Shown here piece after piece: positions 3,013 through 55,849 of a DNA stretch of 64,000 nucleotides. Made by a program: the position numbers and the translations under genes. The notes below the pieces were generated by a model. The model was not told the DNA's origin, ran no database searches, and saw nothing but the letters and a program-made list of their open reading frames with translations. Origin of the DNA: an uncultured Chloroflexia bacterium (GTDB lineage Bacteria; Chloroflexota; Dehalococcoidia; SM23-28-2; RBG-16-64-32); NCBI GenBank assembly GCA_963717065.1, contig CAVQVC010000001.1, positions 199,643 through 263,642 on the forward strand. The letters run 5' to 3'. Each line of letters starts with the position of its first letter. The stretch's first letter is position 1.

Positions 3013-3675
3013 ATGGCAGACGACACCCAACTGATCCGCGTCACCGACACCGCCGCCGAGAGCGTCGAGGAGTCCCTTCGGCAGAACATGATCCTCACCT
3101 CCGTCGAGGGCATCGTGAACTGGGCGCGCCGCTCCTCCCTCTGGCCCGTCGCCTTCGGCCTCGCCTGCTGCGCCATCGAGATGATCGCGACGGCGATGCC
3201 CCGCTACGACATCGCCCGCTTCGGCGCCGAGCTCTTCCGCCCCTCGCCCCGCCAGGCCGACCTGATGATCGTCGCCGGCACCGTCACCTGGAAGATGGCC
3301 GTCCCCGTCCGCCGCATCTACCTCCAGATGGCCGAGCCCCGTTACGTCATCTCCATGGGCTCCTGCGCCACCATCGGCGGCCCCTTCGCCTACGGCTACA
3401 GCACTCTCCCCGGCGTCAATCTGATCATCCCCGTCGACGTCTACGTCCCCGGCTGCCCGCCGCGGCCGGAGTCGCTCCTCGCCGGTCTAATGCTCCTCCA
3501 GGAGAAGATCAAGAAGGAGAAGCTGGGTGGCGAGCGCGACGTCAGACAGCCCAGCGGCGACTTCTCCCGCTACCTCCCCGAGGGCGACCCCGTCCGCCGC
3601 GAGCTGGAGTCGCTGTTCCCGCCTTACACCGGCGAACACGTCCCCGACTCCGCCGTCTCCCGCATCCGCGCCTAG
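3013..3675 (+). CDS. nuoB: NADH-quinone oxidoreductase subunit B (NuoB/Nqo6-like, [4Fe-4S] N2 cluster)
   Basis: Motifs [19 protein letters not shown] and [12 protein letters not shown] with conserved Cys ligands. 220 aa. Confidence 0.9.
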
Positions 3676-3875
3676 GAAGTGCTGCCCCGGATCTTGTCTT
3701 TCGGAAGTACGGCGCTTAGCCTGACATCGTGCACCTAATCCGTCCCAACCTCGATCCCGTCCTGTCCGACTTCCACCGAGAAGCCGCCTGCGTCCGCGCC
3801 CTCCTGGTTCTCTCGCCCACCTGACCGCCCTGCCTCGACGGCGCCTCCCGTGCGGGGGCCGGTCTCCTGGCCGGA

Positions 3876-4238
3876 GTGCTGCACCCGAACCTGCGTGTGT
3901 ACTTCGTCTGGACGCCGATGCAGCCGTCGGACTCGGAGACCGCCGCCGGACTCGCGGCAGATCCTATTGCTGACCCCCGCGCCGCGCATTACTGGGATGC
4001 GCAACGCCATCTGACGCGAGAGCTGGGAGTCGCGCTGGGCATCAGTGCCTCAGAATCCATCCCGATGGCTCGCGGCGTTGGCGCCGCCTGGGACGTGTAC
4101 CTGGCGTACGGGCGCGGCGATTCAGACATTCGGTCCCCCCGCTTCTGGATGCACCAACTTGCTGTCAAGCACGCGCCACGGCTCGACCTAACGGAATGGG
4201 TGCACGTGGTCGAGGCGTTGGTGGGTAACGATGCGTAG
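3876..4238 (+). CDS. hypothetical protein
   Basis: Open frame from 3825 with a GTG start at 3876. No recognisable domain. Lies between nuoB and sodX. Confidence 0.3.
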   Translation: MLHPNLRVYFVWTPMQPSDSETAAGLAADPIADPRAAHYWDAQRHLTRELGVALGISASESIPMARGVGAAWDVYLAYGRGDSDIRSPRFWMHQLAVKHAPRLDLTEWVHVVEALVGNDA

Positions 4239-4302
4239 GGGTTGAGCAAGTGCGCCCATTCGCGTCGAATCTTCGCGGCGCCATCGCGCAGTTGCTCAAC
4301 CC

Positions 4303-4776
4303 CTACCTGCGTTCGATCCTCCTCACTCGTTCCGGCGGCCAGTACACCAACCAACCGCGAGCAATGATGTCCTCTCGGCGGAAGGGCCCTAACTCCCGGC
4401 TGTCCGTGCTTCGGTCTGAGTTGTCGCCGAGCAGCCAGTACTCGCCCGCTGGTTTGCGCCCCGCGTGTACGGGAGCCCCAGCGACTCGCTTGATGAACCG
4501 GACACCGGGCCGCGCCGCGTGGCGTGCAAGCACTACATCACCCACTTGCGGCGCCGCGTCGCGGTACGCCAACCTGTCAAACAGGACCCGCTCCCTCGGC
4601 CGCAGCGTTGGGTACATGCTCGCCCCGCGGACGATGACCCGCTTCGCGGTCACTAGGGCGAGGAGCGGGTACAGTCCGGGGATTGAGCGCGAGAAACGAA
4701 GAATGCTGGCAACTGACAACTGAAAACTACCAACTACAACCCGTCGTCTGCTAACCTCTATTCGCCAATCACACAC
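4303..4776 (-). CDS. sodX: S26-family signal-peptidase-like protein, SodX-type NiSOD maturation peptidase
   Basis: S26 boxes GASMYPTL, GDVVLAR, FIKRVAG and GDNSDRSTDSR. Start codon is 17 bp from the divergent sodN start. Confidence 0.7.
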   Translation of the reverse strand: MCDWRIEVSRRRVVVGSFQLSVASILRFSRSIPGLYPLLALVTAKRVIVRGASMYPTLRPRERVLFDRLAYRDAAPQVGDVVLARHAARPGVRFIKRVAGAPVHAGRKPAGEYWLLGDNSDRSTDSRELGPFRREDIIARGWLVYWPPERVRRIERR

Positions 4777-4793
4777 CCCAAGGAGGTTCGCCC

Positions 4794-5296
4794 ATGCTAC
4801 GACACGCTTTCGCCCTGCTCAACCGCCTGCTGCCCGCCGAGGAGCGCGTCCGCCCACTGCGACATCCCCTGCGGCATCTACGACCCCCACTATGCCCAGG
4901 TCGCCGCGCTCACCGTCATCCGCATGAACCAGCTCATCGAGGCGATGGAAGCTCCAGCCATGGAGAAGGCCGCCCGCGACAAGTACATGCACAACCTCGC
5001 CCGCTACACCGCCACCAAGGAGCACCACGCCGAGCTGGTCAAGCACGAGGTCCGGATCATCGTGGGCGACTTCTTCAAGGCCGACAACACTCCGAGCGAC
5101 CTCTTTCCCGCTCGTCAACGACATCATGAAGACCGCATCCGTCGCGCGCCAGAACATCGACGCCGAGGCAGCAAACAAGCTGCTGGACCTGGTCAACCAG
5201 TTCGCCGAGGCGTTCTGGAAGGCGAAGGGCGTCGAGACGAAGAAGGTCTCTTCGAACCAGGCCGCCGGCGGTGAGTTCATCGTCCCGGCGGGCTAG
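4794..5296 (+). pseudogene. sodN: nickel superoxide dismutase SodN, frameshifted twice (+1 near 4845 and +1 near 5108)
   Basis: AAGGAGG RBS 7 nt before ATG 4794. Ni-hook HCDIPCGIYDP lies in frame +1 from 4855. The C-terminus LFPLVNDIMKTASVARQNIDAEAANKLLDLVNQFAEAFWKAKG lies in frame +2 and ends at TAG 5294-5296. Both shifts fall at CCC runs. Confidence 0.8.
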
Positions 5297-5356
5297 CAAG
5301 GCACCACCTCCAGCGCCAGCGGGGACGCCTCCGCCCGAGAATCGTTGCACACGGGA

Positions 5357-5374
5357 TAGTTGCACGCGCAACTA
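5357..5374. promoter_or_regulatory. perfect 7-bp inverted repeat TAGTTGC-n4-GCAACTA, candidate MarR operator
   Basis: Palindrome 23 bp upstream of the marR GTG start. Confidence 0.4.
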
Positions 5375-5396
5375 CAATGCTGTTACCCTGAGCGTT

Positions 5397-5930
5397 GTGA
5401 AACTCCCTGACGAACTGCTCGAGCACAGCGACGCCATTGACGCCCTCCGCACCATCAACCGGGTGCGCTGGGTGGTTGGCGACATGATCGGCAAGCAGGT
5501 TGAGCACCAGGAAGGCATCCCCTTTGAGTGGTTCGAGGTGCTGATTGTGCTCGCCGAAGCCCCTGAGGAGGCCCTCCGGATGGGCGACCTCGCCAGCCTC
5601 ACGCTCCGCAGCAAGAGCGCGATGACACGCCTGACAGACCGCATGGAGCGGGCCACCCTCGTCCGGCGCGACTCCTGCGAAAGCGACCGGCGGGTGATCT
5701 TCGTAACGCTTACTGACGAAGGACGCGCGCTCATCGAGCGCGTGAAACCGCCCGCGGCGCGGATCATGATCGAGCGTTTCACGTCCCACATCACCCCCGA
5801 GGACGCGCGCTTCATCACTACCGCCCTGACGAAAGTCCTCGTCGCAAACGGCGCCGAGTTGGAGACTCCTCTCCGGCCCGAGAGCGACGATGCGGTTCCG
5901 GTGACATTGAGCGGGGAGCGCTCGCGTTGA
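5397..5930 (+). CDS. MarR family transcriptional regulator
   Basis: Winged-helix segment RLTDRMERATLVRRDSCESDRRVIFVTLTDEGRALIERV. Plausible GTG start at 5397 (the longer ORF begins at 5271). Overlaps the MMPL gene by 4 nt. Confidence 0.75.
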   Translation: MKLPDELLEHSDAIDALRTINRVRWVVGDMIGKQVEHQEGIPFEWFEVLIVLAEAPEEALRMGDLASLTLRSKSAMTRLTDRMERATLVRRDSCESDRRVIFVTLTDEGRALIERVKPPAARIMIERFTSHITPEDARFITTALTKVLVANGAELETPLRPESDDAVPVTLSGERSR

Positions 5931-8107
5931 GCCGCCCCTCATTCTTGTTCGAACGCTGGCCGCGCTTCGCCCACCGCCACGCGCGAATCGTCATCGCCGG
6001 CGCCTTCGCTGTAATCATCCCGCTCGCTCTTCTCTGGTCGGTCGCAGCCGGCGAATACGGCACCTCGTTCAGCGTGCCCGGCTCAGAGGCACAGCAGCTC
6101 TTCGACGTCCTCTCGGAGCGTTTTCCCTCAAACGCCGGCGACCAGGCCACAGTTGTCGTCAAGGCAGACGCAGGCTTCGACGATCCCGCAGTTCAATCAC
6201 AGCTCGAATCCCTTCGCGGAGAGCTCACCGCGCTACCGCAGGTAACCGGGGTCTCCTCTCCCCTCGAAACCCCCGGGAGCACCTCGCAGGACGGGACGAT
6301 CGCCCGCATCGCCGTCCAGTACGGCAGCCAGGCCCGTGACCTTGACGAATCCACCGCTGAGGCGCTCATCGACCTTGTCGAGGAGCAGTCAGTGCCCGGC
6401 TTCCAGGTGGAGGCCGGCGGCCCAATCGTTCAGCTCGCCGAGCGCGAGCCTCCCGGAAGCTCCGAGATTATCGGAATCGCCGCCGCCGTAATCATCCTCC
6501 TGTTGGCGTTTGGCTCGGTCGTGGCGATGGGACTGCCCATAGTCACCGCGCTGCTCGGCCTCAGCACGGGCTTTTTCCTGATCGGCCTCGCCTCTCGCTT
6601 CGTCCCCATGCCGGGTTTCGCGCCGCAGTTCATCGCCATGATCGGCATCGGCGTCGGCATCGACTATGCCCTCCTTATCGTCAGCCGATACCGTGAAGAG
6701 GTCGGGACCGGCATGTCGGGCGAGGACGCAGCGGTAACCTCTGCCGGCACAGCCGGTCGCTCGGTCTTCTTCGCAGGCGTCACCGTCGTCATCGCCCTCC
6801 TCGGCCTCTGGGCGTCGGGGATCGAGGCGATCGGCTGGGTCGGGACTGCCGGCGCCGCCGTCGTCGGCATTATGGTCGCCGTCGCCCTTCTCGTGCTCCC
6901 GGCTTTCCTGCGCTTTGCCGGCCCTTACCTGGACCGTTGGAGCGTGCCCGGACTGAAACCACCCTCTGCCGACAACACAACCGGAATTGCCTACCGCTGG
7001 AGCCGCTTCGTTCAGCGGAACCCCCTCATCTGTCTGGCAGCCTCGCTCGGGTTCCTGCTGCTCCTGGCGGCGCCCGTGCTGGACCTCCGGCTGGGCACTT
7101 CCGACTCCGGGAACAACCCCGAGTCGTTCACCTCGCGCCGCGCCTACGACCTGATCACAGAAGGGTTCGGCCCGGGCGCAAACGGTCCGATTATCGTCGG
7201 TGTGACCATCGACGACCCGGCCGCCCTCTCTACAGTGGAGCAACTACCTGATTTCCTCGGCGATTTCGCCGGCGTCCAGCAAGTGTCACCGCCGCGTTTC
7301 AACGACGACAAGACGGCCGCCGTCATCACCGTTATCCCGGCTTACGCGCCGCAGGATTCCGAAACCGTGGACCTCATCCACGACCTCCGCCGGTCGCTGG
7401 CCGGGGAATTCGAAGGGACCGGAGCTCATCCGCTGGTGGGTGGCTCGACGGCCCTCTTTATCGATGTCGGGACGCAGCAGTCGGAGCGTCTCCCCTATTT
7501 CCTCGGCGCCGTCCTCCTCCTCAGCTTCCTCCTCTTGATGGCCGTCTTCCGGTCGCTTCTCGTGCCGCTCAAGGCGGTAGCCATGAACCTGCTCTCGATT
7601 GGTGCAGCCTTCGGCATCCTCGTCGTTATCTTCCAGTGGGGCTGGTTCGGAAACGTGCTCGACGTCAGCCGCGAGGGACCTGTTGAGGCGTTCTTGCCGA
7701 TGATGCTTTTTGCCGTCCTCTTCGGCCTCTCCATGGACTACGAAGTCTTCCTTGTAAGCCGCATCCGCGAAGAGTACCTGAAGTCCGGGGACAACTCCGA
7801 GGCGGTCGCCCGGGGTCTCTCCGTCACCAGCCGCGTCATCACCGCCGCCGCCGCGATAATGGTCGCCGTCTTCGGTGCATTCGCGCTGAGCGATCAGCGC
7901 GTCGTCAAGGAGTTCGGGATCGGCCTCTGTTGCGCCATCTTCCTGGACGCTACGGTAGTCCGCCTCGTACTCGTGCCGAGCCTCATGCAACTGGCGGGAC
8001 GCTGGAACTGGTGGATGCCCAGCCGGCTCGACCGGCTGCTCCCCAGGATCAGCGTCGAGTCCGAGCACCTCGGCCCCCCCGTCGAGGCCAAGGCGGACAC
8101 CATCTAG
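5927..8107 (+). CDS. MMPL family RND-type transporter
   Basis: 726 aa. Two 6-TM bundles with large extracytoplasmic loops. Typical MMPL-family segments. Confidence 0.85.
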   Translation: MSRPSFLFERWPRFAHRHARIVIAGAFAVIIPLALLWSVAAGEYGTSFSVPGSEAQQLFDVLSERFPSNAGDQATVVVKADAGFDDPAVQSQLESLRGELTALPQVTGVSSPLETPGSTSQDGTIARIAVQYGSQARDLDESTAEALIDLVEEQSVPGFQVEAGGPIVQLAEREPPGSSEIIGIAAAVIILLLAFGSVVAMGLPIVTALLGLSTGFFLIGLASRFVPMPGFAPQFIAMIGIGVGIDYALLIVSRYREEVGTGMSGEDAAVTSAGTAGRSVFFAGVTVVIALLGLWASGIEAIGWVGTAGAAVVGIMVAVALLVLPAFLRFAGPYLDRWSVPGLKPPSADNTTGIAYRWSRFVQRNPLICLAASLGFLLLLAAPVLDLRLGTSDSGNNPESFTSRRAYDLITEGFGPGANGPIIVGVTIDDPAALSTVEQLPDFLGDFAGVQQVSPPRFNDDKTAAVITVIPAYAPQDSETVDLIHDLRRSLAGEFEGTGAHPLVGGSTALFIDVGTQQSERLPYFLGAVLLLSFLLLMAVFRSLLVPLKAVAMNLLSIGAAFGILVVIFQWGWFGNVLDVSREGPVEAFLPMMLFAVLFGLSMDYEVFLVSRIREEYLKSGDNSEAVARGLSVTSRVITAAAAIMVAVFGAFALSDQRVVKEFGIGLCCAIFLDATVVRLVLVPSLMQLAGRWNWWMPSRLDRLLPRISVESEHLGPPVEAKADTI

Positions 8108-8118
8108 ACCGGTGGATA

Positions 8119-10140
8119 CTAACGTCCGGCGTTAATCGCACCGGCTCCGCAAATTTGCTGAGCGCCCCTCTTAACCTGTAAATCATTACCCCCACCTCCG
8201 AAGACGAGAGCCTTCGGCCGCGATCGTCGGCTGCGCGAGACGGCGTCCTTGCGCGATTGCAGGACTAGCGCGCCGGCGAGGAAAGTGGCCGTCATGCCGC
8301 CGAGAATGCCCCAGTAGAGGAGGAGACGTGGCTGCCGGTCGGCGCGGGACTCTGCGGCGCTCTTCGGACCAGGATCAGTGTCGTAGGTCTGCGGGTCGAA
8401 GTTGACCTGCTTGAGGAGTGGATTTTCCTCAAGTGTTCCGGGTTCCCTCTCGAGCGTCTGGTAGTATAGCCGGTTTAGTTCGGCGGTCGTGCCCATGGCA
8501 GTGGAAGACCAGTGCCCAACCATGCCGTAGCTCATTACCTCGGCGACGCCGTTCACGGGCAAGACGAAACCTCCAAGGAGCATTTGCGGGGCGACAAGGA
8601 GCGGGGCTGCCGCGGCGGCCAGGGCGACGTTCTTCGCCCCGGCCGAGATCATCAGGCCGAGGGCCATCGCCGCCATCATGGTCAGCACCAGTCCCAGGTA
8701 CAATTCCAGCCATCCCGGCAGGAAGACGCCGTGCGGCGGCGTTCCAGTCTTGAGAACAATTACGCCCAGCATCAAGGCAGCCTGCATGAGAACGAGAACG
8801 GAGAGGACCGCGACTTTCGATGCGACGTAGGGTCCGACTCCCAGGTTCACTAGCCGCTCTCGCTTGTAGATAGAATTCTCTTTCACGATCTCGCGCGACG
8901 CGCTATTCGTGCCAATCCAGATGGCCAGTATTGCGATCATCGCCAACGCGAGCTGGGCGCTCACGAATGATTTTCCGTCTGCGAACAGATCCGAGTTGAT
9001 CACCAGCATCAGGCTCAGACCCATGAATGGCGCCTGCGATACAAGGATTCCGAGCGTCAGCTTGTCGGTCCAGAGGAGCCTGGCGTAGCGCTGTGTCAGT
9101 ATCAAGAACTGACGCCAGGGATGCATGTTCAGAGCGGGGTGCGTCGCGGGAACCCTGAAGCCTCTCGGGTGAGCCCTGGTTTCGGGCCGTCTCGCGGGCG
9201 AGGTCGGGAGTGGGTCAGGCATAGCGTCTCGTTGAGGCTGGCGGATGTAGCGATCGTAGAACGTTGACATGCGGTATCGGCACTCCCAGTACTCCGGGGC
9301 ATCTGCCGATTCATCGAGCATGTCGTAGATCGCGCTGATCGACGGTGCTTCGAAAAATTTGAGGGCGTCTTCCGGCGATCCAAAGAAACAAAGCCTCCCG
9401 GTCGGCGCCAGAAACGCCACCTTGTCGCAGACATCGATGTTCGCGGTGGCGTGGGTGACTGCGATTACTGTTCGTCCTTCGTCGGCCAGGCGCCGTAGCA
9501 AGAGCATCAGCCGCCGCTCCAGGACGGGATCGAGCCCCGATGTCGGCTCGTCCAGGTAAAGTAGTCCGGGCCGGGAGATCAGTTCGCTGGCAATGGATAC
9601 TCGCTTGCGCTGGCCTCCAGAAAGCTTACTGATTTGCTGCCGGCGGTGGGCAGTCATCTCCACCTCGTCGAGCGCGCTATCGACGCGAGCCAACACCTCG
9701 CTGGCGGGGGTGCCGGCGGGAAGCCGGAGGCGGGCGGTGAAATACAGTGCGTCCTCCACCCTGAGCTCGCGGTGGAGAATGTCGTCCTGGGGTACGTAAC
9801 CAAGCCGGTGCCTGTGCTCGCTCATGTTGGCGTAGTAGTCGGCCCCGTTAACCAGGACGTGGCCGCGCGCCGCCGGACGAAAGCCGTTCAGCGCGTCCAG
9901 CAATGTCGACTTTCCCGATCCGCTGCCACCAACCAGCGCAACAAATTCGCCCGGCGCTATCGAAAGCGAAATGTCGTTCAGCAATACCTTCTCTCCGCGC
10001 CGGCCGGCAAACTGACGAAGGCCGATTGCATCGACTCGCATCGGCTCACTCAGTGGGGGAAGCACACTCGGCTCGGCGCTTACGTCCGGGTCGTTTATGA
10101 CCTCTGGCCGGGCATTTGCCATTGGAGTTTGGGTAGTCAT
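8119..10140 (-). CDS. fused ABC transporter ATPase plus ABC-2 permease (ABCG/White-like half transporter)
   Basis: N-terminal Walker A GGSGSGKSTLL, LSGGQRKRVSIA and LYLDEPTSGLD. C-terminal 6-TM ABC-2 domain. Confidence 0.8.
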   Translation of the reverse strand: MTTQTPMANARPEVINDPDVSAEPSVLPPLSEPMRVDAIGLRQFAGRRGEKVLLNDISLSIAPGEFVALVGGSGSGKSTLLDALNGFRPAARGHVLVNGADYYANMSEHRHRLGYVPQDDILHRELRVEDALYFTARLRLPAGTPASEVLARVDSALDEVEMTAHRRQQISKLSGGQRKRVSIASELISRPGLLYLDEPTSGLDPVLERRLMLLLRRLADEGRTVIAVTHATANIDVCDKVAFLAPTGRLCFFGSPEDALKFFEAPSISAIYDMLDESADAPEYWECRYRMSTFYDRYIRQPQRDAMPDPLPTSPARRPETRAHPRGFRVPATHPALNMHPWRQFLILTQRYARLLWTDKLTLGILVSQAPFMGLSLMLVINSDLFADGKSFVSAQLALAMIAILAIWIGTNSASREIVKENSIYKRERLVNLGVGPYVASKVAVLSVLVLMQAALMLGVIVLKTGTPPHGVFLPGWLELYLGLVLTMMAAMALGLMISAGAKNVALAAAAAPLLVAPQMLLGGFVLPVNGVAEVMSYGMVGHWSSTAMGTTAELNRLYYQTLEREPGTLEENPLLKQVNFDPQTYDTDPGPKSAAESRADRQPRLLLYWGILGGMTATFLAGALVLQSRKDAVSRSRRSRPKALVFGGGGNDLQVKRGAQQICGAGAINAGR

Positions 10141-10363
10141 ACTGACCTCCCTTGCGCGAGACTTGCCGTTGAAACCAGCCTATGCAGCTGGGCGAAGGCG
10201 CACATCTCCCATGCTGGCTATTCGTGGAAGCGCGATCTTTGTGCCGCCTCTGGCCATGGTTGGCTATTACTCGCGGAGGTTGCGGGCGAGTGGCGCAAGA
10301 GATCCCTGTGATTTCTTTCACCAAACCTGCGTTTGCGCTAGACTTGGGCCGGAGGAGAAACGC

Positions 10364-10864
10364 TTGTTCGGTCTCGGTGTGCTCAAAGGCCTATCGGTAA
10401 CCCTTCGTTACCTGGTGCGCAGGCCCTTCACCACGCAGTACCCGGACGATGTCCGGCCCATTCCCGTCAACGCTCGCACCAATCTCCTCTGGTTTGAGGA
10501 GCGCTGCACCGGCTGTTCGACCTGCGCCCAGGCCTGCCCTGATGGGTGCATTCTCGTCCAGACGACCCCGCGTGAGGACGGCGCCCTTAACATCGACCGC
10601 TACGAAATCGACTTCCGTCTCTGCATGTACTGCGGCCTCTGCGTCGAGGCCTGCCCGTACGAAGCCATCCAGGCCGGTGGTCCCCTCAATGACGCCGCCT
10701 ACGACTTCAACGAGCTGTACCGGAACAAGCACGCCCTCACGAAAATGGCGCAGGAACACCTCCACACGCACGACCACACCTATCCCAACGGCAAAAAGGC
10801 GCCCGTCGGCGAGGAAATCCCCCTGCACCTTGGCAAACCCGTAGAGCGCGACCGTGTCCGATAG
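10364..10864 (+). CDS. nuoI: NADH-quinone oxidoreductase subunit I (2x[4Fe-4S] ferredoxin)
   Basis: CTGCSTCAQACP and CMYCGLCVEACP motifs. LKGLSVTLRYL...YPDD N-terminus. TTG start at 10364 with a GGAGGAG RBS. The longer ORF begins at 10097. Confidence 0.8.
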   Translation: MFGLGVLKGLSVTLRYLVRRPFTTQYPDDVRPIPVNARTNLLWFEERCTGCSTCAQACPDGCILVQTTPREDGALNIDRYEIDFRLCMYCGLCVEACPYEAIQAGGPLNDAAYDFNELYRNKHALTKMAQEHLHTHDHTYPNGKKAPVGEEIPLHLGKPVERDRVR

Positions 10865-13509
10865 CCCGCTCGTCAAGATATCGCTCGACGGCCGTGAGAT
10901 CGAGGCCCCCGAAGGCGCCCCCCTCGTCGAAGTCATCAAGAACTCCGGCACCTTCATCTCCAACCTCTGCTACATCGACGGCCGCCCTCCTTACGCCGGT
11001 TGCCGTACCTGCCTCGTCGAGATCGAGGGCGCGCGCGGCTACCAACTCTCATGTACAAGCCGTATCGCCGACGGCATGATCGTCCGCACCGAGGGGCATG
11101 AGCTCTTCCAGACGCGCCAGGCAGTACTTTCGTTGATCCTCTCGTATCACTCCGACCGCTGCCTCACCTGCCACCGCGTGGTGAAATGCAAGCCCGGCGA
11201 CACCTGCCTGCGTGACGGCACGGTGACGCACCGATGTCTTACCTGCTCCAAGAACTACCGCTGCGAGCTGCAAACAACCTGCGAGATGCTGGAGATGGCA
11301 GGCTTCGAGCCCTGGGATGGCGACGAGCGCACCTACTACAACACCCCGCAACCGCCTCCCGACCAGGCCAACCCCTTCCTCGAGTTCGATCCCCAGATGT
11401 GCATCATCTGCACACGCTGCGTGCGCGCCTGCGACGAGTTGCGCCATACCGGCGCCATCACCCTCGCCGGCCGCGGCCCCAGCACCCGCATCGAGTTCGG
11501 CCAGGGCGGCCCCGTCCACGACTCTAATTGCGACTTCTGCGGCGCCTGCATCGACGTCTGCCCTACCGCCACGCTCATGGAGCATCCCAACAAGTGGGGC
11601 GCCACCCAGACCGAGCGCTGGACTCCGACCACCTGCACCCAGTGCTCCGTCGGCTGCTCGATCTTCCTCGGCTCGAAGAAGGGCCGGGGCGTCATCGTCC
11701 GGCCGGACACCACCTCCAATCCCGTCAGCCGCGACCAGCTGTGCGTCCGCGGCCGCTTCCACTACGATGCCGTCAAGAACACCGCCCGTCTCGCGACGCC
11801 GCTGATTCGCCGCAACGGCGGCCAGGACGCCGCTGACTGGGACGAGGCGCTTGAATTCACGGCCGCCCGCATCGCCCAGGTGCGGGAGGAGCATGGCCCC
11901 GACGCCATCGGCTTCCTCACCTCGCCGCTCGCCACCAACGAAGAGAACTACCTCCTCGGCAAAGTGGCCCGCGCAATCGTTGGCACGAACAACGTCGACT
12001 CCAGCGCCGGTCCGGTGATCAGCGCCGCCGCCGAGAGTCTGCGCGCCTCCTTTGGCAGCGAGGTCCTCCCGGCCGACATGGCGCGCCTGGCGCAGTCGAA
12101 GACCATCCTCGTCGTCGCCACCGACCTTGAGTCCAGTCACAACGTCGCCGCGCTTCGGATCAAGGACGCAGCCGTCTACGGCAAGGCCCGAGTCGTCGTC
12201 GTCAGCCCCCTCTGGGGCGAGCTGAACGACTTCGCGGAGGTCTGGGTCTGCCCGAAGCCGGGCGAGGAGGCCGCCGCCGTCGCCGCTATCTCCGCCGCGG
12301 TCGAGAAACAGAAGGGCGTTGAGGGAGAGGGTTCCGCGCCACCGTCCGGCCTCAGCGAAGATATCAACCGCGCCGCCGCTGTGATTTCCGCAGGCGAGCA
12401 CCCCCTGTCCATCGTTTACGCTCTCCCGCACACCGGCACGGATGCAGCGCGCGTCGATTACCGCAGCGCTCGCTAACACTGCGATCGCCTGCGACCCGCG
12501 GAGAGCGGGACAGGCCCTCTTCATACTTCCCCAGGAAGCCAACGTCTGGGGCATGCGCGATCTCGCCGGCTCGCCTGACCTGCTCCCCGGCTACCGCCGA
12601 GCTGGAGACGAGGCCGCGCGCACCGACATGCAGCGCCTCTGGGGCGCTCAACTCCCATCCGCTCCCGGTTTGACGTTCGAGCAGATGCTCTCAAACGGCA
12701 AGCTCAAGGCGCTTGTCGTGATGAACGACAACCCGCTCATGCTCGCCGCGGCCAGCGCGCGCACTCGCCGGAGCCTTGAATCGCTCGAATTCCTCGCCGT
12801 TATCGACTCGCTGCCAACCGACACGGCGAACCTCGCGCACGCCGTGCTCGCCGGTGTCAGCCCCTGGGCAAAGGAAGGCACCACCACCAGCGCCGACCGC
12901 CGCATCCTTCGCATGCACGCCGCCGTCGAACCGCAGGGCGAGGCGCGGCAAGGCTGGCGCATCCTCAGCGAGCTGGGCACACGGCTCGCTGAACGCATGA
13001 ATCCGGGCGAGATCCGCATCAACTACCAGCGCCCGGCCGAGATCATGGAGGAGATCGCACAGGTGGTCCCGCTCTACCAGGACGCGACCTACCGTGACAT
13101 GGACTCCGGTGCGCGGCCCCACATCAACGGCCTCGGCCCCCGCGCCGCCACACGCCAGGCAGTCCCGGCGGCACCCTTGCCCGTCGGGAGCGGGGGTTTC
13201 ACCCTCCTCGCCACACGAAGCCTTTACATGAGCTACGAGGGCGCCGCCATCCACTCGCCCGAGGCAGACCGCCTTCACCGCGAGGACTCCGTCAAAATGA
13301 ACCCCGCCGACGCCGCCTCTCTCGGTCTCTCCGAGGGCGACCGCGTCACGCTCAGCGCGAACGGCGCCCAACTTACCGCTCCGGTCGGCATCACCGCAGC
13401 GATCCAACCGCGCATGCTCTACCTGCCGCTCTACTTCGATGCCGGCGCCGTCACCGCCCTCTTCGAATCTGACGCACCCGTCGTTCAGGTCGAACTCGCG
13501 CGCGCCTGA
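10854..13509 (+). pseudogene. nuoG: NADH-quinone oxidoreductase subunit G (2Fe-2S, 4Fe-4S and molybdopterin-like domain), one frameshift near 12445-12475
   Basis: N-terminal 2Fe-2S CRTC...C, HxxxC...CxxC and 4Fe-4S motifs. The reading frame moves +1 around GATTACCGC; removing one T gives a continuous ...VDTAALANTAIACD... The C-terminal 355 aa continue as the molybdopterin-like domain. Confidence 0.8.
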
Positions 13510-18911: not shown

Positions 18912-19451
18912 ATGGTAGATCCCGCACAGATCACGGACCTCGTCGAAAAGATGTCGCAGGAGCGAGGCAAGCTCCTCGGCGAGCTCGAAGGGATGGACGA
19001 GGAGCGCGCCTCCACGCCTTACAAACCCGGCGATTGGAACCAGAAGCAACAGATGTCACACCTCTGCGAGATGGAAGCCGCCTACCGGGCCTGGGTCGAG
19101 CGGGGCCTGGAAGAAGACGGCGCAGACGTCGATGGCCTCCGCGGCGAGCGGCCGGCGATACCACTCGAATCGGCGAACGATCACACCGCCGCCGAGCACC
19201 TCGCCGAGATGCGCCGCCAGCGCGAGATCACCTCGCAGCTCATCGCCTCAATGAAGCCGGAGGACTTCGACCGCACGGCGAAAAACTCGCTGTTCGGCTC
19301 GCTGACGCTCATGCAGTGGCTCCGCTCCTATTACCGGCATGACCGCATGCACTACGACCAGGTCCGCGGCGAGGAGCCCAGCTACAAGCCGAAGTTCGCC
19401 GGTGGGGGCGCCGAGCCGGATCAGCGCCGCGGCCCCCGCATCGGCGCCTGA
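18912..19451 (+). CDS. DinB/YfiT-like (DinB_2) four-helix-bundle protein
   Basis: Start MVDPAQIT with a GGAAGGAGG RBS. His-containing helices typical of the DinB_2 superfamily. Confidence 0.5.
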   Translation: MVDPAQITDLVEKMSQERGKLLGELEGMDEERASTPYKPGDWNQKQQMSHLCEMEAAYRAWVERGLEEDGADVDGLRGERPAIPLESANDHTAAEHLAEMRRQREITSQLIASMKPEDFDRTAKNSLFGSLTLMQWLRSYYRHDRMHYDQVRGEEPSYKPKFAGGGAEPDQRRGPRIGA

Positions 19452-20461
19452 TGCCCGGGCCGCGCGTCTACGTCACCCGCCACCTTCCCGGCGCCGCGCT
19501 GGCATATCTGGCGGAACGGTCCGATCTGCGAGTCTGGGACGGTGACACTCCTGTCCCACCGGCTGAGCTGCGGAGAACGGTCGGCAAGCGACACGGGGCA
19601 TCCTCACCCTCCTTACGGATCGTATTGACGACGAGCTCTTGGCCGCCGCGGACCGATTGTCGGTCATTAGCAACATGGCCACCGGCTACGACAACATCGA
19701 TGTCGAGTCCGCGACCCGTCGAGGCGTGCTGGTGACCCGCACCCCGGGCGTGCTCAGCGAGACCACTGCAGACTTTACGTTCGCGCTTCTTCTCGCCGCC
19801 GCGCGGCGCGTGGTGGAGGCAGACCGCTACGTCCGAGAAGGAAACTGGCGCGACATGGGGCCCCGAAGTGCTCCTCGGTCATGACGTCCACGGGGCAACC
19901 ATCGGCATCATCGGCATGGGCGGCATCGGCCAGGAGGTCGCGAAGCGCGCCCGCGGCTTCGGCATGCGCATTCTCTACAACAGCCGCAGCCCGAAGCCGC
20001 CGCTCGAGCGCCGGTACCGGATGCAGTTCGCCCCCCTGGACAATCTCCTCCAGGAATCCGACTTCGTCACTCTTCACGCCCCACTCACTCCCGACACCCG
20101 CCACTTCATCGGCGAACGAGAGCTCCGCCTCATGAGATCGACTGCCGTGCTCGTCAATACCGCCCGCGGTCCGCTCGTCGACCAGAAGGCCTTGTACAAA
20201 GCGCTCTCGGAGCGCTGGATCGCGGCTGCCGCCCTCGACGTTACCGATCCTGAACCGATCGCCTCGGACGACCCCCTCCTGTCGCTCGACAACCTGGTCA
20301 TCGCGCCCCACATCGCCAGCGCCAGCGTCGCCACGCGTTCCCGAATGGCCATGCTCGCCGCCGAGCAGCTGGTTCAGGCACTCGAAGGCAAAGTGCCTGA
20401 GCACGTCGTGAACCGCGATGCTGTGCGCGTGTGGAAGCGCCGTCTTACGCGGGACGGTTGA
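19451..20461 (+). pseudogene. D-isomer-specific 2-hydroxyacid dehydrogenase (glyoxylate/hydroxypyruvate reductase-like), two frameshifts
   Basis: Three ORF pieces in frames 2/1/2. Frame changes fall at GGGG (about 19600) and GGGGCCCC (about 19860). GIIGMGGIGQEVAKRA NAD motif and catalytic R/E/H are present. Confidence 0.8.
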
Positions 20462-27872: not shown

Positions 27873-30208
27873 CTAAAGCTTCCCCATCGCCCGCAGCACG
27901 CGCTCCGGCGTGATCGGCGCCTCGGTTAGCCGCGCGCCGATCGCCTCGGCGATTGCGTTGGCGACGGCCGCCATCCCGGCGACGATCGACGGCTCACCGA
28001 CGATGCGCGCGCCGTACGGGCCGTCCTCCGACGGCACCTCGACGATGATCGTCTCGATCGGCGGCAGGTCGCGCGTCGTCGGCAGGCGGTAGTCGAGCAG
28101 GTTGCCGTTCAGCAGCTGGCCCTGCGTCGTCGTAGATCATCTCTTCCCAGAGCGCGATGCCGAGCCCCTGGCTGGCGCCGCCCTGCATCTGGCCTTCGAC
28201 CGAGAGCGGGTTGATCGCGAAGCCGGCGTCCTGCGCGACCGCGAAGCCGAGCACCGTGATCTCGCCGGTGTCCGGGTCGACTTCGACGTCGGCGGCCTGC
28301 GCGGTGAAGCCGGGCGCCGATCTTGCGTCGCCGTGATCGCGCCGCGGCCGACGATTGCGGCGTAGCGCGCGCCGAAGTTCGTCGTCCAGCTTGCCCAGGC
28401 GCGCGAAGGTGATCGACTTGTCCGGCGCGCCCTTCACGCGCACCTCGCCGTCCGCCGCCTCGCACTCGTCCGGCGGTCGCCTCGAGGCGCGGCGCGGCGA
28501 TCTCGATCATCTGCCGCCGCGCGTCCTCGGCGGCGAGCTTGACGGCGCGGCCGACGGTGTACGTCGTCTTGCTGCCGGCGCTCATGCCGGCGAAGGGCGC
28601 GGTCTTGGTGTCGCCGTATGTGACGCGTGACCGTCTCCGGCGGCACGTCCAGCACCTCGGCGGCGATCTGCCTGGAAGCGTGGTGTTGACGCCGGTGATG
28701 TCGGCGGCGCCGACGGTGACGTTGAACGTGCCGTCGGCGTTCAGGCCGACGATGGCGCTCGCCGGCTGCAGGCCGCCCATCCAGCCGCCGACTGCCAGGC
28801 CGATGCCGCGGTTCGGCTGCTTGCCGTCACCTGCGCGGTCTCTTCCAGACCTCGCTCTCGGAGATCGCCTCCAGGCACTCGATCAGGCCGATGCGCGGGT
28901 ACGGCTGGCCGCTGGGCAGCGGGTCGCCTTCGACGACGGCGTTCTTCAGGCGCACCTCCAGCGGGTCGAGGCCAAGCTCCTTCGCCATCATGTCCATCTG
29001 GCATCTCGATGGCGAAGGTGGCGTTGTGCGCGGCCGGCGCTCGCAGCGCGCCGACGCTGGCCTTGTTCGTCAGCACTTCGTAGCCGAGGATGTCGAGGTT
29101 CGGGCACTTGTAGTAGCCGCCGATCAGCAGGCATCCCGGCGGCGACCGAGCGCGCCGGGGAAGGCGCCGGAGTCGTAGACGAGGCGCGCCTGGATGGCGG
29201 TCAGCGTGCCGTCCTTCTTCATGCCCGGTCTTCAGCTCGATGTGCGCGAACGGCGCCGGCGTGGCGGCGAGCATGTCCTCGCGCGCGGCTCATGATGTAC
29301 TTCACCGGCCGGCGCACGGCCATCGCCAGCGAGCGCCGACCATCAGCTCGGTGAGGTAGATCTTGCCGCCGAAGCCGCCGCCGACCTCCGTCGCGATGAC
29401 GCGGATCTTGTTCTCCGGGATGTTCAGCGTCTGCGCCAGCTCGTCGCGGATGTAGAACGGCGCCTGTGTGCTCGTCCAGACGTACAGCTCGCCGTTGGCG
29501 TCGTAGTCGGCGATCGTGGAGTGCGGCTCGATGTAGCTCTGGTGCACCTGCGCCGACCGCCACGAGCGCTCGACTATGACGTCCGCCTCGGCGAACCCGG
29601 CCTCGATGTCGCCGCGCTTGAAGGGCGTCGTGGAGGCGATGTTGCTGCGGCTTACCAGTCCTGCTCCTTCTCCTCAATGTCCAGGATCGAGACGTGGCCC
29701 GCGTCCTCCGAGCGGTCGACGTCGTGCAGCGGCGAGCGCACGAGCGGCGAGTCGTCCTTCATCGCCTCGAGCGGATCGACGACCGGCGGTCAGCACCTCG
29801 TACTCGACTTCGATCAGCCCGAGCGCCTCTTCGGCGACGTGCGGGTCGCTCGCGAGGACGGCGGCGATCGGCTGGCCCTGCGAAGAGCACTTCGTCGTCG
29901 CGGGAAGACGACGCCGCGCCGGTTCGACTGGGTTCTTCTTGTACGGTGGGAGGTCAGCGGCGGTGATGACAGCCTCGACGCCCGGGTGCTGCCGCGCCTT
30001 CGACGTGTCGATCGACTTGATGCGCGCGTGGGCGTACGGGCTGCCGAGCACCTTCGCGTGCAGCATGCGCGGGAGCTTCATGTCGTCGGCGTATATACGG
30101 TCTCGCCGGTGACCTTGGCCGGTCGCATCCGGACGTACGTATCGGCTTTCCGACGTAGCGGTACTCGCGGCTCTGTTCCTCTTCTCGCGTAATCGTCTCT
30201 TGTGCCAT
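27873..30208 (-). pseudogene. xanthine dehydrogenase/CO dehydrogenase family molybdopterin-binding large subunit (CoxL/XdhA-like), shattered by about 8-10 frameshifts
   Basis: N-terminal YVGKPIRT and a/b-hammerhead (LHAKVLGSPYAHARI). MoCo domain pieces (GGGFGGK, IGGYYKCPN). C-terminus ...QLLNGNLLDYRLPTTRDLPPIET...AIAEAIGARLTEAPITPERVLRAMGKL stops at 27873. These fragments are spread over all three minus frames. Confidence 0.75.
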
Positions 30209-30702
30209 CAGTTCTCCTCGGTCCATAAGCCCTGTCGCTTCAGCTGCCGCCAGTACCGCCTCGTAGATCTTGGTGTAGCCGGTGCACCGGCAGAGGTTGC
30301 CGGCCAGGCCCTCGCGGATCTCCTCCAGCGTCGGATTGGGGTTCGCGTCCAGCAAGCGCCGTCGCCGCCATGATCATCCCGGGCGTGCAGAAGCCGCACT
30401 GGACTCCGCCCGCGTCGATGAACGCCTGCTGCACTGGGTGCAGGTCTCCGTTCGTAAGACAGGCCCTCGATCGTGATCACCTCACGCCCGTCCGCCTGCA
30501 CCGCAAGCATCAGGCACGAAGTGATCAGCCGCCCGTCGACGATCATCGAGCAGGCGCCGCAGTCGCCGGTGCCGCAGCCTTCCTTGTTGCCCGTCAAGCG
30601 CAGCTCCTCGCGCACCGTCTCCAGGAGCGTCCAGGAAGGCTCGACAGCGATTTCCTGCGTTTCGCCGTTGACCCTCATGGTTATCAGTTGTTTTGACATC
30701 AC
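30208..30702 (-). pseudogene. [2Fe-2S] small subunit of molybdo-hydroxylase (CoxS-like), at least 2 frameshifts
   Basis: N-terminus GCGTGDCGACS. Middle QCGFCTPGMIM and C-terminal NLCRCTGYTKIYEAV lie in two other frames (ORFs 30240..30434 and 29954..30355). The stop overlaps the coxL ATG (TGATG). Confidence 0.75.
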
Positions 30703-30718
30703 ACCTGTTCCTGTCTCG

Positions 30719-31591
30719 TCAAACCGTCCGCTCCGAAGCCGCCCGCAGCATCCGCTCCGTCATCACCCGCACCAGGTGCCGCCGGAACTCCACCGAACCC
30801 CGAGTGTCCGATATCGGGCTGCACTCGCCCGCCGCGATCTCCGCAGAGCGCGCGAACGTCTCATCTGACGGCGCTGTACCTTCGAGCTCCGCCTCGGCCT
30901 TCTTCGCCCGCACCGGTGTCGGCGCCACGGCGCCCAGCGCGATCCGCGCCCGCGAGATCTTCCCATTTTCCAGCGTCAGGACTGCGGCCACGCCGACGAC
31001 GGCAATGTCCATCTGCTTGCGAGGCGTATGCCGCTGGTATGCTGCACCCGTACGCTTCGACAGCACGGGTAGCCGCAGCTCAGCCAGGAGTTCGTCCGAG
31101 GCCAGCACCGTCCGCCCGGGCCCGGTGAAGAACTGATCGATCGGCACCGATCGCCGTCCCTTCGGGCCAACGATCACCGCCTGCGCCTCGTACGCCACAA
31201 GCGGCGGCGCCGTGTCTGCCGACGGTGCCGCGTTACACACGTTCCCGCCGATCGTCGCCATGTTCATCGTCTGCAACGACCCGACGACGCCCGCGCCCTC
31301 CGCGAGGGCAGGGTAGTGTTGGCGCACAACCGCCGATTCAGCGATGTCGGTCATCGTCGCCCCCGCGCCGATCCGCAGACCGTCCTTCTCGCTATACTCG
31401 ATTCCCTTGAGCTCCGAGACCCGTGACAGGTCAACGACCGACGCCGGATAGGGGAACCTCGTCGCGCTCTCTTTCATCTGCACCACGATATCGGTGCCGC
31501 CAGCTATCGGCCGGGCGCCTCCGCCGCGTTCCTTCAGCAAGGCCACGGCTTCGTCAAGCGTGTTGGGGGCGAAATATTCGAAGCCTTTCAC
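30719..31591 (-). CDS. FAD-binding medium subunit of molybdo-hydroxylase (CoxM-like)
   Basis: AGGTDIVVQMK FAD motif. CO dehydrogenase flavoprotein C-terminal domain. Intact at 290 aa. Confidence 0.85.
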   Translation of the reverse strand: MKGFEYFAPNTLDEAVALLKERGGGARPIAGGTDIVVQMKESATRFPYPASVVDLSRVSELKGIEYSEKDGLRIGAGATMTDIAESAVVRQHYPALAEGAGVVGSLQTMNMATIGGNVCNAAPSADTAPPLVAYEAQAVIVGPKGRRSVPIDQFFTGPGRTVLASDELLAELRLPVLSKRTGAAYQRHTPRKQMDIAVVGVAAVLTLENGKISRARIALGAVAPTPVRAKKAEAELEGTAPSDETFARSAEIAAGECSPISDTRGSVEFRRHLVRVMTERMLRAASERTV

Positions 31592-42513: not shown

Positions 42514-42649
42514 TTCTCTCCCGTCTCCCCATGAAATATGCGGGCCGCATCCCCCCAGGCGCGCGCCCGCCTGTCTCCAATTGTATCGAAAGCTCGCCCT
42601 AGCCTCTAACCACTAACGTCTAACCCCTCCATCACGTACCCTGTTTCTC

Positions 42650-44246
42650 GTGCCCGAGTCCGAACTCCCGCTCCTGATCCAGGACCTCTTGCGCCCGGAG
42701 GCCTACCCACACCCCGCGGGTGAGATCCAGCTCATCCAGACTCACATCTCCTACGTTCTCATCGCCGGGGATCACGTCTACAAGATCAAGAAGCCGGTGA
42801 ATTTCGGGTTCCTGGACTTCTCGCACTCTGTCGCGCCGCCGTCATTTCTGTCGCAAAGAGGTCGAGCTCAATTCTCGTCTATGTTCGGATACGTACCTCG
42901 GCGTCGTTCCGGTTCGCCGCACGCCCTCCGGTCACGCTTTCGATGGCCCCGGCGACACCGTCGAGTACGCCGTCCACATGCGCCGCCTCCCCGCCGATCG
43001 CATGATGGACACGCTCCTGGAGCGCGGCGAGGTCACTACGGCGATGATCGAGGCGCTCGCCGCTAAGCTCGCCGCCTTTCACGCGACCGCTGAAACGAAT
43101 CCGCGCATGGCCGCCTACGGCGACTGGGCTATCCGCTACAACCAGCGCGAGAACGAGGACCAATGGGCGCCCTACGTCGGCCGTGTGCTCACGCCCGAGC
43201 AGGACCGCATCCTGCGCGCCTACACCGAGGCCTTCTTCGCGCGCAAAAGAACGTCCTCGCAGCGGCGCGTCGAGCGAGCTGCGCATCCGCCGCGTCCACG
43301 CCGACCTCCGCTCCGACGCCGTCTGCTTCACCAACGGCATCTGCGTCTTCGATTGCGTCGAGTTCAACCGCCGCATCAACGTCCTCGACGTCGCCCGCGA
43401 CACCGGCTTTCTCGCCATGGACCTCAAGTACCGAGGCCACGACGGGCTGGCCGCCGACTTCACCCGCGCCTACCTCGCCGCCGCGCAGTGATCCGGACCA
43501 CGAGGAAGTCATCGACTTCTACGCCATGTACAGTGCCTGTGTCCGCGGCAAAGTCGAGGCATTCCTCCTCGACCTCCCCGAGATATCCGATAAACAGAAG
43601 CGCGCGGCACAACAGGCCGCGAGCCGATACTTCGACCTCGCCTGCCAATACGCTGCGTCGCTTCCCCCCGCGATGCTTGTGATCACCTGCGGCCTCGCCG
43701 GCAGCGGCAAGTCCTCGCTCGCACGCGCCCTCGCGCCCGCCGGATTCGAGGTTCTCTCCTCAGACGTCGTCCGCAAGCAGCTTGCGGGCGTCGAACCGTC
43801 CGAGCACCGCTACGAGGAGTTCGAGAAGGGCATCTACGCCGGCGACACCACCGAACGCACGTACGCCGCTCTGCTGGATCAGGCTCGTCCTCTGCTCGAA
43901 CGGGGCCGCTCCGTCGATCCTCGACGCCTCCTTCCTCCGCCGCGACCACCGCCGCCGCGCCGCCCGCCTCGCGAAAGACACCGGCGCCCAGTTCGCCTGC
44001 CTCTACCTCGAAATCGACGACGCCACCGCGCGCGCCCGCATCGAACAGCGCGTCAAAGAGGGCGGCGACCCCTCAGACGCCCGCTGGCTCGTTTACCGCG
44101 GCCAGAAGCGCCGCTTGCAGAAACCCTCCGAAGTCCCCCTGGACCGCCTGGTCACCCTGGACGCTTCGCGCCCCGTCGCGCACCAGAGACGCAGCGCGAT
44201 CAAGGCGTTACGCGCGATATCCCCGCTATCGCTGGCGATCGGCTGA
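42650..44246 (+). pseudogene. bifunctional aminoglycoside-phosphotransferase-like kinase / AAA_33 P-loop kinase (Rv2004c-like), 4 frameshifts
   Basis: N-terminal THISYVLIAGDHVYKIKKPVNFGFLDFS. Kinase catalytic loop RVHADLRSDAV. C-terminal LVITCGLAGSGKSSLARAL Walker A. Pieces lie in frames 2/0/1/2/0. Confidence 0.65.
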
Positions 44247-46985: not shown

Positions 46986-47050
46986 GGAGTCCCTTCGGTC
47001 TCGCAGAGCGGGGGCGAAGGGACGTCTCGAAGGGTTAAGCCCCGGCGACA
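46986..47050. repeat. intragenic palindromic repeat (variant with CTCACCCTGAGG start and GTCCCTTCG/CGAAGGGAC stem) adding 20 aa to HyuB
   Basis: In-frame insert EESLRSRRAGAKGRLEGLSP between the conserved AINAAHP and GDIVILNDPY. Confidence 0.5.
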
Positions 47051-47146
47051 TCGTCATCCTCAACGACCCCTACCTCGGCGGCACCCACCTCCCCGACATC
47101 ACCATGGTCTCCCCCGTCTTCCTTACAAACCCGTCCACGCCTCGAT

Positions 47147-47208
47147 CCGCTCGCCCTGAGGTTCTCGTAGGGCGAGCGGCTGCACAACGGTCCGAACCGG
47201 TACTCATC
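47147..47208. repeat. intragenic copy of stem-loop module CCGCTCGCCCTGAGGTTCTCGTAGGGCGAGCGG (12-bp perfect stem)
   Basis: Adds about 25 aa (TNPSTPRSARPEVLVGRAAAQRSEP) to HyuB. Confidence 0.6.
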
Positions 47209-47604
47209 GGCTTCGTCGCCTCCCGCGCCCACCACGCAGACGTCGGCGGCATCTCCCCCGGCTCCATGCCCATCGCCGAGGAGCTTACCCAGGAAGGCGT
47301 CGTCATCCCCCCGATCAAGCTGTACGACCGCGGTCGCCTCAACCAGCCCGTCCTCGACCTCCTCCTCCGCAACATGCGCGCCCCCGACGAACGCCGCGCC
47401 GACCTCGACGCCCAGATCGCCGCCAACCGCACCGGCGAGGCCCGCCTGCGCGAGATCATCGACCGCTACGGATTGCGCCGCTCGCAGCAACTGATGCGCG
47501 CCCTGATGGACTACGCCGAGCACATGACCCTCGCCGCCATCGCCGCCATCCCCGACGGCGCCTACACATTCGAAGACTTCCTCGATGACGACGGCAGCGA
47601 ATCT

Positions 47605-47727
47605 GTCATTATGAGGGACGAAGAATCCGGGGGGGTGGGGCCAACGCCTCGAATCACCACAACGTCGCGATCCGCTCGCCCTGAGGCACTCGTAGGGCGA
47701 GCAGCGGCAGAACGTCCCGAGTCAGGT
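47605..47727. repeat. intragenic full-length repeat copy (GTCATTATGAGG... plus CCGCTCGCCCTGAGG stem-loop), about 123 bp
   Basis: Adds about 45 aa in frame (SESVIMRDEESGGVGPTPRITTTSRSARPEALVGRAAAERPESG). Confidence 0.65.
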
Positions 47728-48102
47728 GACCCCATCCCGATTCGCGTCACCGTCACCATCTCCGGCGACACCCTCCACGCCGACTTCACCGGCTCCGCCC
47801 CCGAGCGTCCCACCTCCATCAACGCCGTCGCCGCCGTCACCCGCTCCGCCGTCTACTACGTCGTCCGCTGCCTCCTCGACGACAGCGTCCCCTCCAACGA
47901 CGGCTGCTTCCGGCCCGTCACCGTCACCCTCCCCGAGCGCTCCGTCGTCAACGCCGGCCCCCCGCGCGCCGTCGCCGCCGGCAACGTCGAGACCTCCCAG
48001 CGCATCACCGACGTCGTCCTCGGCGCCCTCTCGAAGGCCCTCCCCGACGTCATTCCCGCCGCCTCCCAGGGCACCATGAACAACATCACCATCGGTGGAA
48101 AT

Positions 48103-48215
48103 GTCATCCTGAGGCACGAAGGATCTGGCGAGGAGGGGTCGACGCTCCGTTCCAGCGAGATGCCCCGACTCGCTCGCCCTGAGGAATCGAAGGGCGAGCG
48201 GCAGTGACAACGCCT
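48103..48215. repeat. intragenic full-length repeat copy, about 113 bp, containing the frame break/stop of hyuB
   Basis: GTCATCCTGAGGCACGAAGGATCTGGCG...CGCTCGCCCTGAGGAATCGAAGGGCGAGCGGCAGTGA. Confidence 0.65.
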
Positions 48216-48538
48216 CGCCGGCCCAATTCGCCTACTACGAGACCATCGCCGGCGGCGCCGGCGGCTCCCCCACCGCTCCCGGCCTCGACGCCGTCCACAC
48301 CCACATGACGAACACCCTCAACACCCCCGTCGAGGCCCTCGAGATGGCCTATCCCTTCCGCGTAATCGAATACTCTGTCCGCCGCGGCTCCGGCGGCGCC
48401 GGACGCCACCCCGGCGGCGACGGCGTGACCCGTACCTACGAGTTCCTTGCCCTCGCCACCGTCACCCTGGTCACCGACCGCCGCACCCTCGCCCCCTACG
48501 GCCTCGCCGGCGGCCATCCCGGCACCCCCGGTCGAAAT

Positions 48539-48662
48539 GTCATTATGAGGAACGAAGAGTCCGGGGAAGAGGGGTCAACGCCCCGTTCTGGTGAGGCGCC
48601 ACGACCCGCTCGTCCTGAGGTTCTCGTAGGACGAGCGGCAGGACAACGTCCCGATCACGAAG
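48539..48662. repeat. intragenic full-length repeat copy, about 124 bp, in-frame
   Basis: GTCATTATGAGGAACGAAGAGTCCGGGG...CCGCTCGTCCTGAGGTTCTCGTAGGACGAGCGG. Adds NVIMRNEESGEEGSTPRSGEAPRPARPEVLVGRAAGQRPDHE. Confidence 0.65.
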
Positions 48663-48810
48663 CATTTGAGCCTACCACCCTCCCCTCCAAGGTCCGCCTT
48701 ACCGTCTCCCCCGGCGACCGCCTCATCATCGAAACCCCCGGCGGCGGTGGCTGGGGCCGCAAGCGATCTTCCCTCTCCCGCTCACGGCAGAGGGGAGGGG
48801 GTGAGGGCAA

Positions 48811-49506: not shown

Positions 49507-49527
49507 CGTCTGATAGCGACGCCTAAG

Positions 49528-55751: not shown

Positions 55752-55849
55752 GTGGCACCTCCTTCGTGGTCGTTGCGGGGTGCAGTATATACCGTCAACT
55801 GATGGACTTCGACGGTGACAATCCTCAGAATTGCGCCTATCCTTTCCCC

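Follow-up and report, generated by a model that had tools for sequence, protein, structure and literature searches.

A divergent sodX-sodN locus in an uncultured Dehalococcoidia bacterium, with two extra bases in sodN that are very probably assembly artefacts

A stretch of 64,000 nucleotides from an uncultured Chloroflexota bacterium (hereafter the window) contains a gene for a nickel superoxide dismutase (NiSOD), sodN, and on the opposite strand a gene for its maturation peptidase, sodX. Judged from sequence comparisons, the locus probably represents a normal and functional NiSOD system, where both frame changes that interrupt sodN would be spurious insertions and not mutations of the organism (probability about 0.88). 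As given, no single uninterrupted frame spanned sodN, which was read in three successive frames: 0, then +1, and then +2. The features of the locus and the affected genes elsewhere in the window are listed in Table 1.

Table 1. Features of the sodX-sodN locus and other genes of the window discussed in the text.
Feature	Position	Strand	Remarks
sodX, NiSOD maturation peptidase (S26 family)	4303-4719 (longest ORF to 4776)	-	stop at 4303; PF10502, TIGR02754
Divergent sodX-sodN intergenic region	4720-4793	.	74 bp if the sodX start is TTG 4719
TGCTAACCT, putative extended -10-like element 5' of sodN	4749-4757	+	conserved in alignment
sodN ribosome-binding site AAGGAGG	4780-4786	+	7 nt before ATG 4794; invariant in 9 of 9 aligned loci
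sodN, nickel superoxide dismutase gene	4794-5296	+	Ni-hook, PF09055, TIGR02753
sodN propeptide, MLRHAFALLNRLLPAEE followed by ASA	4794-4854	+	20 codons and 1 extra base; frame 0
Extra base 1, C in GAGGAG[C]GCGTCC	4845	+	frame 0 to +1
sodN Ni-hook HCDIPCGIYDP	4855-4887	+	frame +1; columns invariant in 12 homologues
sodN core	4855-5103	+	frame +1
Extra base 2, one T of a TTT run	5104-5106	+	frame +1 to +2
sodN C-terminal part, LVNDIMKTAS...VPAG, 62 residues	5107-5296	+	frame +2; stop TAG 5294-5296
nuoG/formate-dehydrogenase-like gene, about 890 residues	10866-13506	+	split by one insertion
2-hydroxyacid dehydrogenase	19449-20418		Pfam domain complete only across joined frames
coxL-like large Mo subunit (xanthine-dehydrogenase family)	27876-30210	-	about 22 single-base corrections
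coxS small 2Fe-2S subunit	about 30210-30702	-	two frame changes
Medium FAD subunit	30719-31591	-	intact
APH/AAA_33 kinase	42640-44163		up to 4 shifts; Pfam domain complete only across joined frames
Hydantoinase B	near 48205		Pfam domain complete only across joined frames
Enoyl-CoA hydratase 1	53896-54729		Pfam domain complete only across joined frames
Enoyl-CoA hydratase 2	54933-55753		Pfam domain complete only across joined frames
ArsP permease	55754-57031		Pfam domain complete only across joined frames

The initial annotation had named both genes, described their divergent layout and the three frames of sodN, and placed the first shift inside the cleaved propeptide, and all of these points were borne out. 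Re-inspection located the Ni-hook pattern H-C-x-x-P-C-G-x-Y directly after a 20-residue leader, and in profile searches the frame-corrected SodN scored 135.7 bits against TIGR02753 (cut-off 90) and 124.9 bits against PF09055 (cut-off 25). For sodX, a score of 82.6 bits was obtained with PF10502 (cut-off 22.9), along with a marginal pass of 63.3 bits with TIGR02754 (cut-off 63.25). The SMYPTL (GASMYP Ser), FIKRV (Lys), and GDNSDRSTDSR boxes were present in SodX, where S53, K96, and G117-R127 were invariant in an alignment with the orthologues of two related loci, L001 and L002. The first shift fell within the 20-residue propeptide, 10 nt before the His codon. From the upstream stop at 4723-4725 to that His codon, frame +1 contains no start codon, and hence an alternative start does not explain the break.

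When both extra bases were removed, sodN formed a 166-codon ORF with no stops, whose product shared 148 of 166 residues (89%) with P0001, the closest protein in the database, and a dN/dS of 0.21 was obtained relative to L001. No signs of decay were detected: the ribosome-binding site, the ATG, and the Ni-hook were intact, and the corrected frame was free of stops. A 153-aa antisense ORF that overlaps sodN (4819-5280, minus strand) is a high-GC shadow frame. Nothing in the data pointed to a gene there; the shadow frames of relatives also matched in tblastn, simply as a consequence of sodN conservation.

A DNA alignment with five relatives included exactly two columns in which the window alone carried a base. 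The extra C at 4845 was a gap column in all five relatives, and frameshift-aware protein-to-DNA alignment with P0001 and L002 placed it identically (GAG GAG [C] GCG TCC GCC CAC), with a precision of about 1-2 nt. The extra T, which extends a run of two Ts to three immediately 5' of CCC, was placed at 5104 by frameshift-aware alignment (CTC [T]TT CCC G, versus CTC TTC CCG CTG in L002). Both shifts had originally been assigned to CCC runs, an assignment that had to be abandoned: site 1 is neither a CCC run nor a homopolymer, and site 2 is a TTT run that lies just 5' of CCC. A copy of the same species with an intact sodN was not found, the best protein match being 87-89% identical, and an exact-pattern scan of metagenome contigs over shift site 1, allowing 0-2 bases there, returned no match.

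The nearest SodN proteins and loci were all from uncultured Dehalococcoidia/Chloroflexota MAGs, with the closest proteins in BLASTP at 87% identity and below. The check on whether relatives carry an intact sodN, proposed in the initial annotation, had a uniform outcome, as sodN was found as one tblastn HSP in all 30 loci with a SodN identity of at least 65%. The sodX gene was located head-to-head upstream of sodN in the same 30 loci. In more distant Chloroflexota loci (L031-L080, about 45-54% identity), sodX, where present, mostly follows sodN on the same strand. The order nuoB, hypothetical gene, sodX, and sodN was shared by the window, L001, and L002. Following sodN, a marR gene and then an MMPL gene were observed in both L002 and the window, and a hydrolase, a nuoI-like gene, and a nuoG-like gene in L001. 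The sodX-sodN pair was flanked by complex-I-type genes, with nuoB upstream and the nuoI-like and nuoG-like genes downstream (3013-13506 in the window; 4261-10551 in L001). In the window, sodN is further separated from the nuoI-like gene by marR, the MMPL transporter, and a 673-aa gene.

A spacing of 17 bp between the two starts had been reported, a value that rests on the longest sodX ORF (157 aa, starting at GTG 4776) and was not upheld. The 19 N-terminal residues added by this start aligned to gaps in the SodX proteins of L001 and L002. The likely start, by comparison with these orthologues, is TTG 4719, which would give a protein of 138 aa that begins with MSVASILRFSRSIPGLYPLL, comparable to MSRKTLRRLLRLMSRVPGLYALL in the SodX of L002. 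With this start, the spacer measures 74 bp, between the values for L001 (62 bp) and L002 (83 bp). The intergenic region must carry both promoters back-to-back. A block about 37-45 nt upstream of the sodN ATG, TGCTAACCT, occurs as TGCTAAATT or TAGTAGATT in relatives, and its bases T4752, A4753, and T4757 account for three of the six intergenic columns, outside the ribosome-binding site and ATG, that were invariant in a nine-sequence alignment. This block may be an extended -10 element. A wider motif, T.T..TA...T..A (consensus TCTGCTAnATTCTA), was observed at 4747-4760 of the window and at equivalent positions in L001-L017, and it could represent an extended -10 promoter or a regulator-binding site. 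A scan of 4600-5400 for consensus sigma-70 promoters and terminators returned nothing.

The arrangement resembles characterized NiSOD loci. In the Chloroflexota locus, the leader has 20 residues, while the Streptomyces NiSOD leader has 14. The mature chains of Streptomyces NiSOD in the PDB (1t6u, 1q0d, and others) aligned to residues 21-144 of the SodN of the window; their residue 1 corresponds to His21, which fits the removal of a 20-residue leader. The SodN of the window extends beyond the aligned region by a C-terminal tail of about 22 residues. Cyanobacterial sodN-sodX loci of the Prochlorococcus/Synechococcus type follow the same two-gene maturation logic. In cyanobacteria, sodX follows sodN with the same orientation, an arrangement shared by most of the distant loci L031-L080, in contrast to the head-to-head order of the window and of the 30 close relatives. 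The Streptomyces coelicolor genes sodN (SCO5254) and sodX (SCO5255) are arranged head-to-head around an intergenic region that is conserved (PMC3919588). Shared with the locus in the window are the adjacent dedicated S26-type peptidase, the conserved intergenic region common to both genes, and a leader that is cut before the His-Cys-x-x-Pro-Cys-Gly-x-Tyr hook. It is an accepted mechanism that SodX is required for the activation of NiSOD through cleavage of the preprotein (PMC8346466).

Frame disruptions in the window extended well beyond sodN. Candidates were obtained from a frame caller (a 3-periodic Markov model with Viterbi decoding) run over the window, which flagged many frame changes on the same strand, and were then tested by Pfam or homology; neither sodX nor the short sodN leader was picked up by the caller, and its junctions were used as candidates only. 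Besides those in sodN, at least 37 single-base indels were identified in unrelated conserved genes of the window. They were strongly clustered, mostly insertions, and accompanied by no nonsense codons. The densest patch was the coxL-like gene, the large-subunit member of a CO/xanthine-dehydrogenase-type operon (medium, small, and large subunits; 27876-31591, minus strand). Within its 2.3 kb, about 18 insertions and 4-5 deletions were found, or roughly one per 100 nt, and the corrected product was identical to P0135 at 652 of 767 positions (85%) with no in-frame stops. These shifts were placed by frameshift-aware protein-DNA dynamic programming, where plain tblastn gave long HSPs of low identity that ran through the frames. 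In coxS, both junctions had to be bridged for the Fer2_2 domain to match positions 1-74 of its 75-position profile. The single insertion in the nuoG-like gene lies at 12453 (GCAGCGCGC[G]TCG), and the gene was intact in 14 relatives. Nearly all shifts in the 2-hydroxyacid dehydrogenase, the kinase, hydantoinase B, the enoyl-CoA hydratases, and the permease were +1, or one extra base. By frameshift-aware alignment, no frameshift was found in nuoB, the hypothetical gene, sodX (compared with the L001 and L002 orthologues), and the MMPL gene, so that the pair of indels in sodN forms a small isolated cluster.

A hairpin-core repeat, CGCTCGCCCTGAGGnnCTCGTAGGGCGAGC, of about 60-130 nt was observed in the neighborhood of hydantoinase B (47137-47195, 47589-47720, 48087-48184, 48523-48654, and 50281-50310). 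Of these copies, three are located inside the coding sequence of hydantoinase B, and one more is at or just past its predicted 3' end. The copies in the gene are read in frame as extra peptide, and the product has 596 residues for 480 profile positions. Two copies differ by compensatory stem changes, from GCC/GGC to GTC/GAC. The repeat resembles the palindromic elements of the Rickettsia type that are inserted in genes. No Rfam match was obtained for the whole window at gathering thresholds, nor for 47000-50400 at E-value thresholds, and no tRNAs were found in the window.

Nine of the ten ORF products of the window that were tested were present in a protein collection, each on one contig of 2,780,033 bp (NCBI/ENA), which suggests that the source is a long-read, chromosome-scale MAG. 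The collection proteins included an orphan 56-aa tail of sodN that had been called as a separate gene. Indel errors of long-read or metagenome-assembled genomes share several properties with the damage observed here, namely clustered single-base indels that split conserved genes without nonsense codons on a megabase-scale contig. The best-known error mode of nanopore sequencing is homopolymer deletion; the indels of the window differ in being biased to insertions and not tied to homopolymers. None of the 21 mapped sites had a run of four or more beside the insertion, and runs of three or more occurred at background frequency. A weak enrichment of GCGC/CGCG/CCGG, tested as possibly methylation-linked, was observed at the insertion sites (uncorrected p of about 0.02-0.03), too slight to base a conclusion on. 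Since the insertions lie away from homopolymers, the commonest error mode of long reads does not explain them.

The initial annotation had left two options for sodN, an inactivated NiSOD or homopolymer errors. The evidence strongly favors errors, of which a consensus error in general is supported and the homopolymer type specifically is not. Damage that consists of indels only, biased to insertions, clustered, and free of nonsense codons points to consensus error and not to real pseudogene decay: had the roughly 22 indels in the coxL-like gene accumulated by decay, many substitutions and several stops would be expected along with them, and none were seen. Because conserved genes elsewhere in the window carry dozens of like indels, the shifts in sodN are almost certainly assembly errors, and we infer a technical origin for both lesions. 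Points that speak against such an origin are the absence of frameshifts from the genes next to sodN, the position of the insertions away from homopolymers, and the lack of a match to an intact sodN from the same species. On balance, the sodN frameshifts are very probably artefacts of the assembly.

The strongest competing explanation, which nevertheless appears unlikely, is that sodN is a genuine and very recent pseudogene, where two real insertions inactivated the NiSOD and left sodX intact. The sequence as given is indeed unable to yield a full-length SodN, sodX and the flanking genes are intact while sodN is broken, and no second SOD motif (Fe/Mn or Cu/Zn) was found within the 64-kb window, which is to be read for the window and not for the rest of the genome. 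However, two independent lesions would have had to arise in a gene of 500 bp without any substitutional decay (89% identity, no stops) and with the ribosome-binding site, start codon, and Ni-hook all retained, in a group where 30 of 30 close relatives keep sodN. In addition, conserved genes elsewhere in the window, one for a complex-I-type subunit among them, contain at least 37 equivalent indels, and taking all of these as real would mean that a large part of the genome is no longer functional.

More generally, it is very unlikely that the extra bases are real. The lineage would then either have just lost its NiSOD while keeping SodX, or would tolerate or decode many insertion frameshifts, which number about 40 in 64 kb and also affect complex-I-type and Mo-hydroxylase genes, and an unusual mutational burst or recoding mechanism would be implied.

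A chimeric consensus of co-existing strains, in which the indels derive from merged divergent haplotypes and not from raw read error, has a very slim chance of being correct. It could account for the strong clustering of the indels at 27.9-30.2 kb, 42.6-44.2 kb, and 53.9-57.0 kb, which fits a locally poor consensus; yet such a chimera is itself a sub-type of artefact, and without reads it is indistinguishable from low-coverage read error.

Programmed recoding, by which a full-length SodN would be made through transcriptional slippage or a pair of +1 ribosomal frameshifts, was rejected as extremely unlikely. Although the P-site tRNA-Phe at site 2 might in principle re-pair from UUU to UUC (UUU-C) and site 1 lies within an SD-like GAGGAG, site 1 (GAG-GAG-C-GCG) offers no codon prone to slipping. 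No stop or recognizably slow 0-frame codon comes after either site, so that no slippery codon was paired with a stimulator, and neither has a run of four or more, which leaves nothing for polymerase slippage to act on. Furthermore, the extra bases were present in none of the five DNA-aligned relatives, which leaves no conserved shift site; sodN is in one frame in 30 of 30 close relatives, and like shifts recur about 40 times in unrelated genes and in varied contexts.

Under the preferred reading of an ordinary locus with consensus errors, the extra bases at 4845 and 5104-5106 would have entered the 2.78-Mb source contig when it was sequenced or assembled. By analogy with the Streptomyces and Prochlorococcus systems, sodN would encode a preprotein of 166 residues, and SodX, a Ser/Lys peptidase of the S26 family, would be transcribed divergently from the shared spacer of ~74 bp. 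SodX would then cleave the 20-residue leader of SodN before His21, and since this cleavage exposes His21 as the new N-terminus, the HCDIPCGIY hook could bind Ni.

The practical value of the finding is a warning about the contig, which contains patches with an indel error of about 1%; the cox-like, nuoG-like, and enoyl-CoA hydratase genes are affected, as are the other genes noted above. Given such patches, wherever a gene of this contig is called as frameshifted, split, or a pseudogene, the call should be regarded as an assembly artefact until checked against reads. The biological importance is little: a NiSOD with a neighboring SodX is a well-described system, the relatives among Dehalococcoidia MAGs are already annotated in this way, and the host would be an uncultured aerobic member of the Dehalococcoidia (Chloroflexota) with an ordinary NiSOD system.
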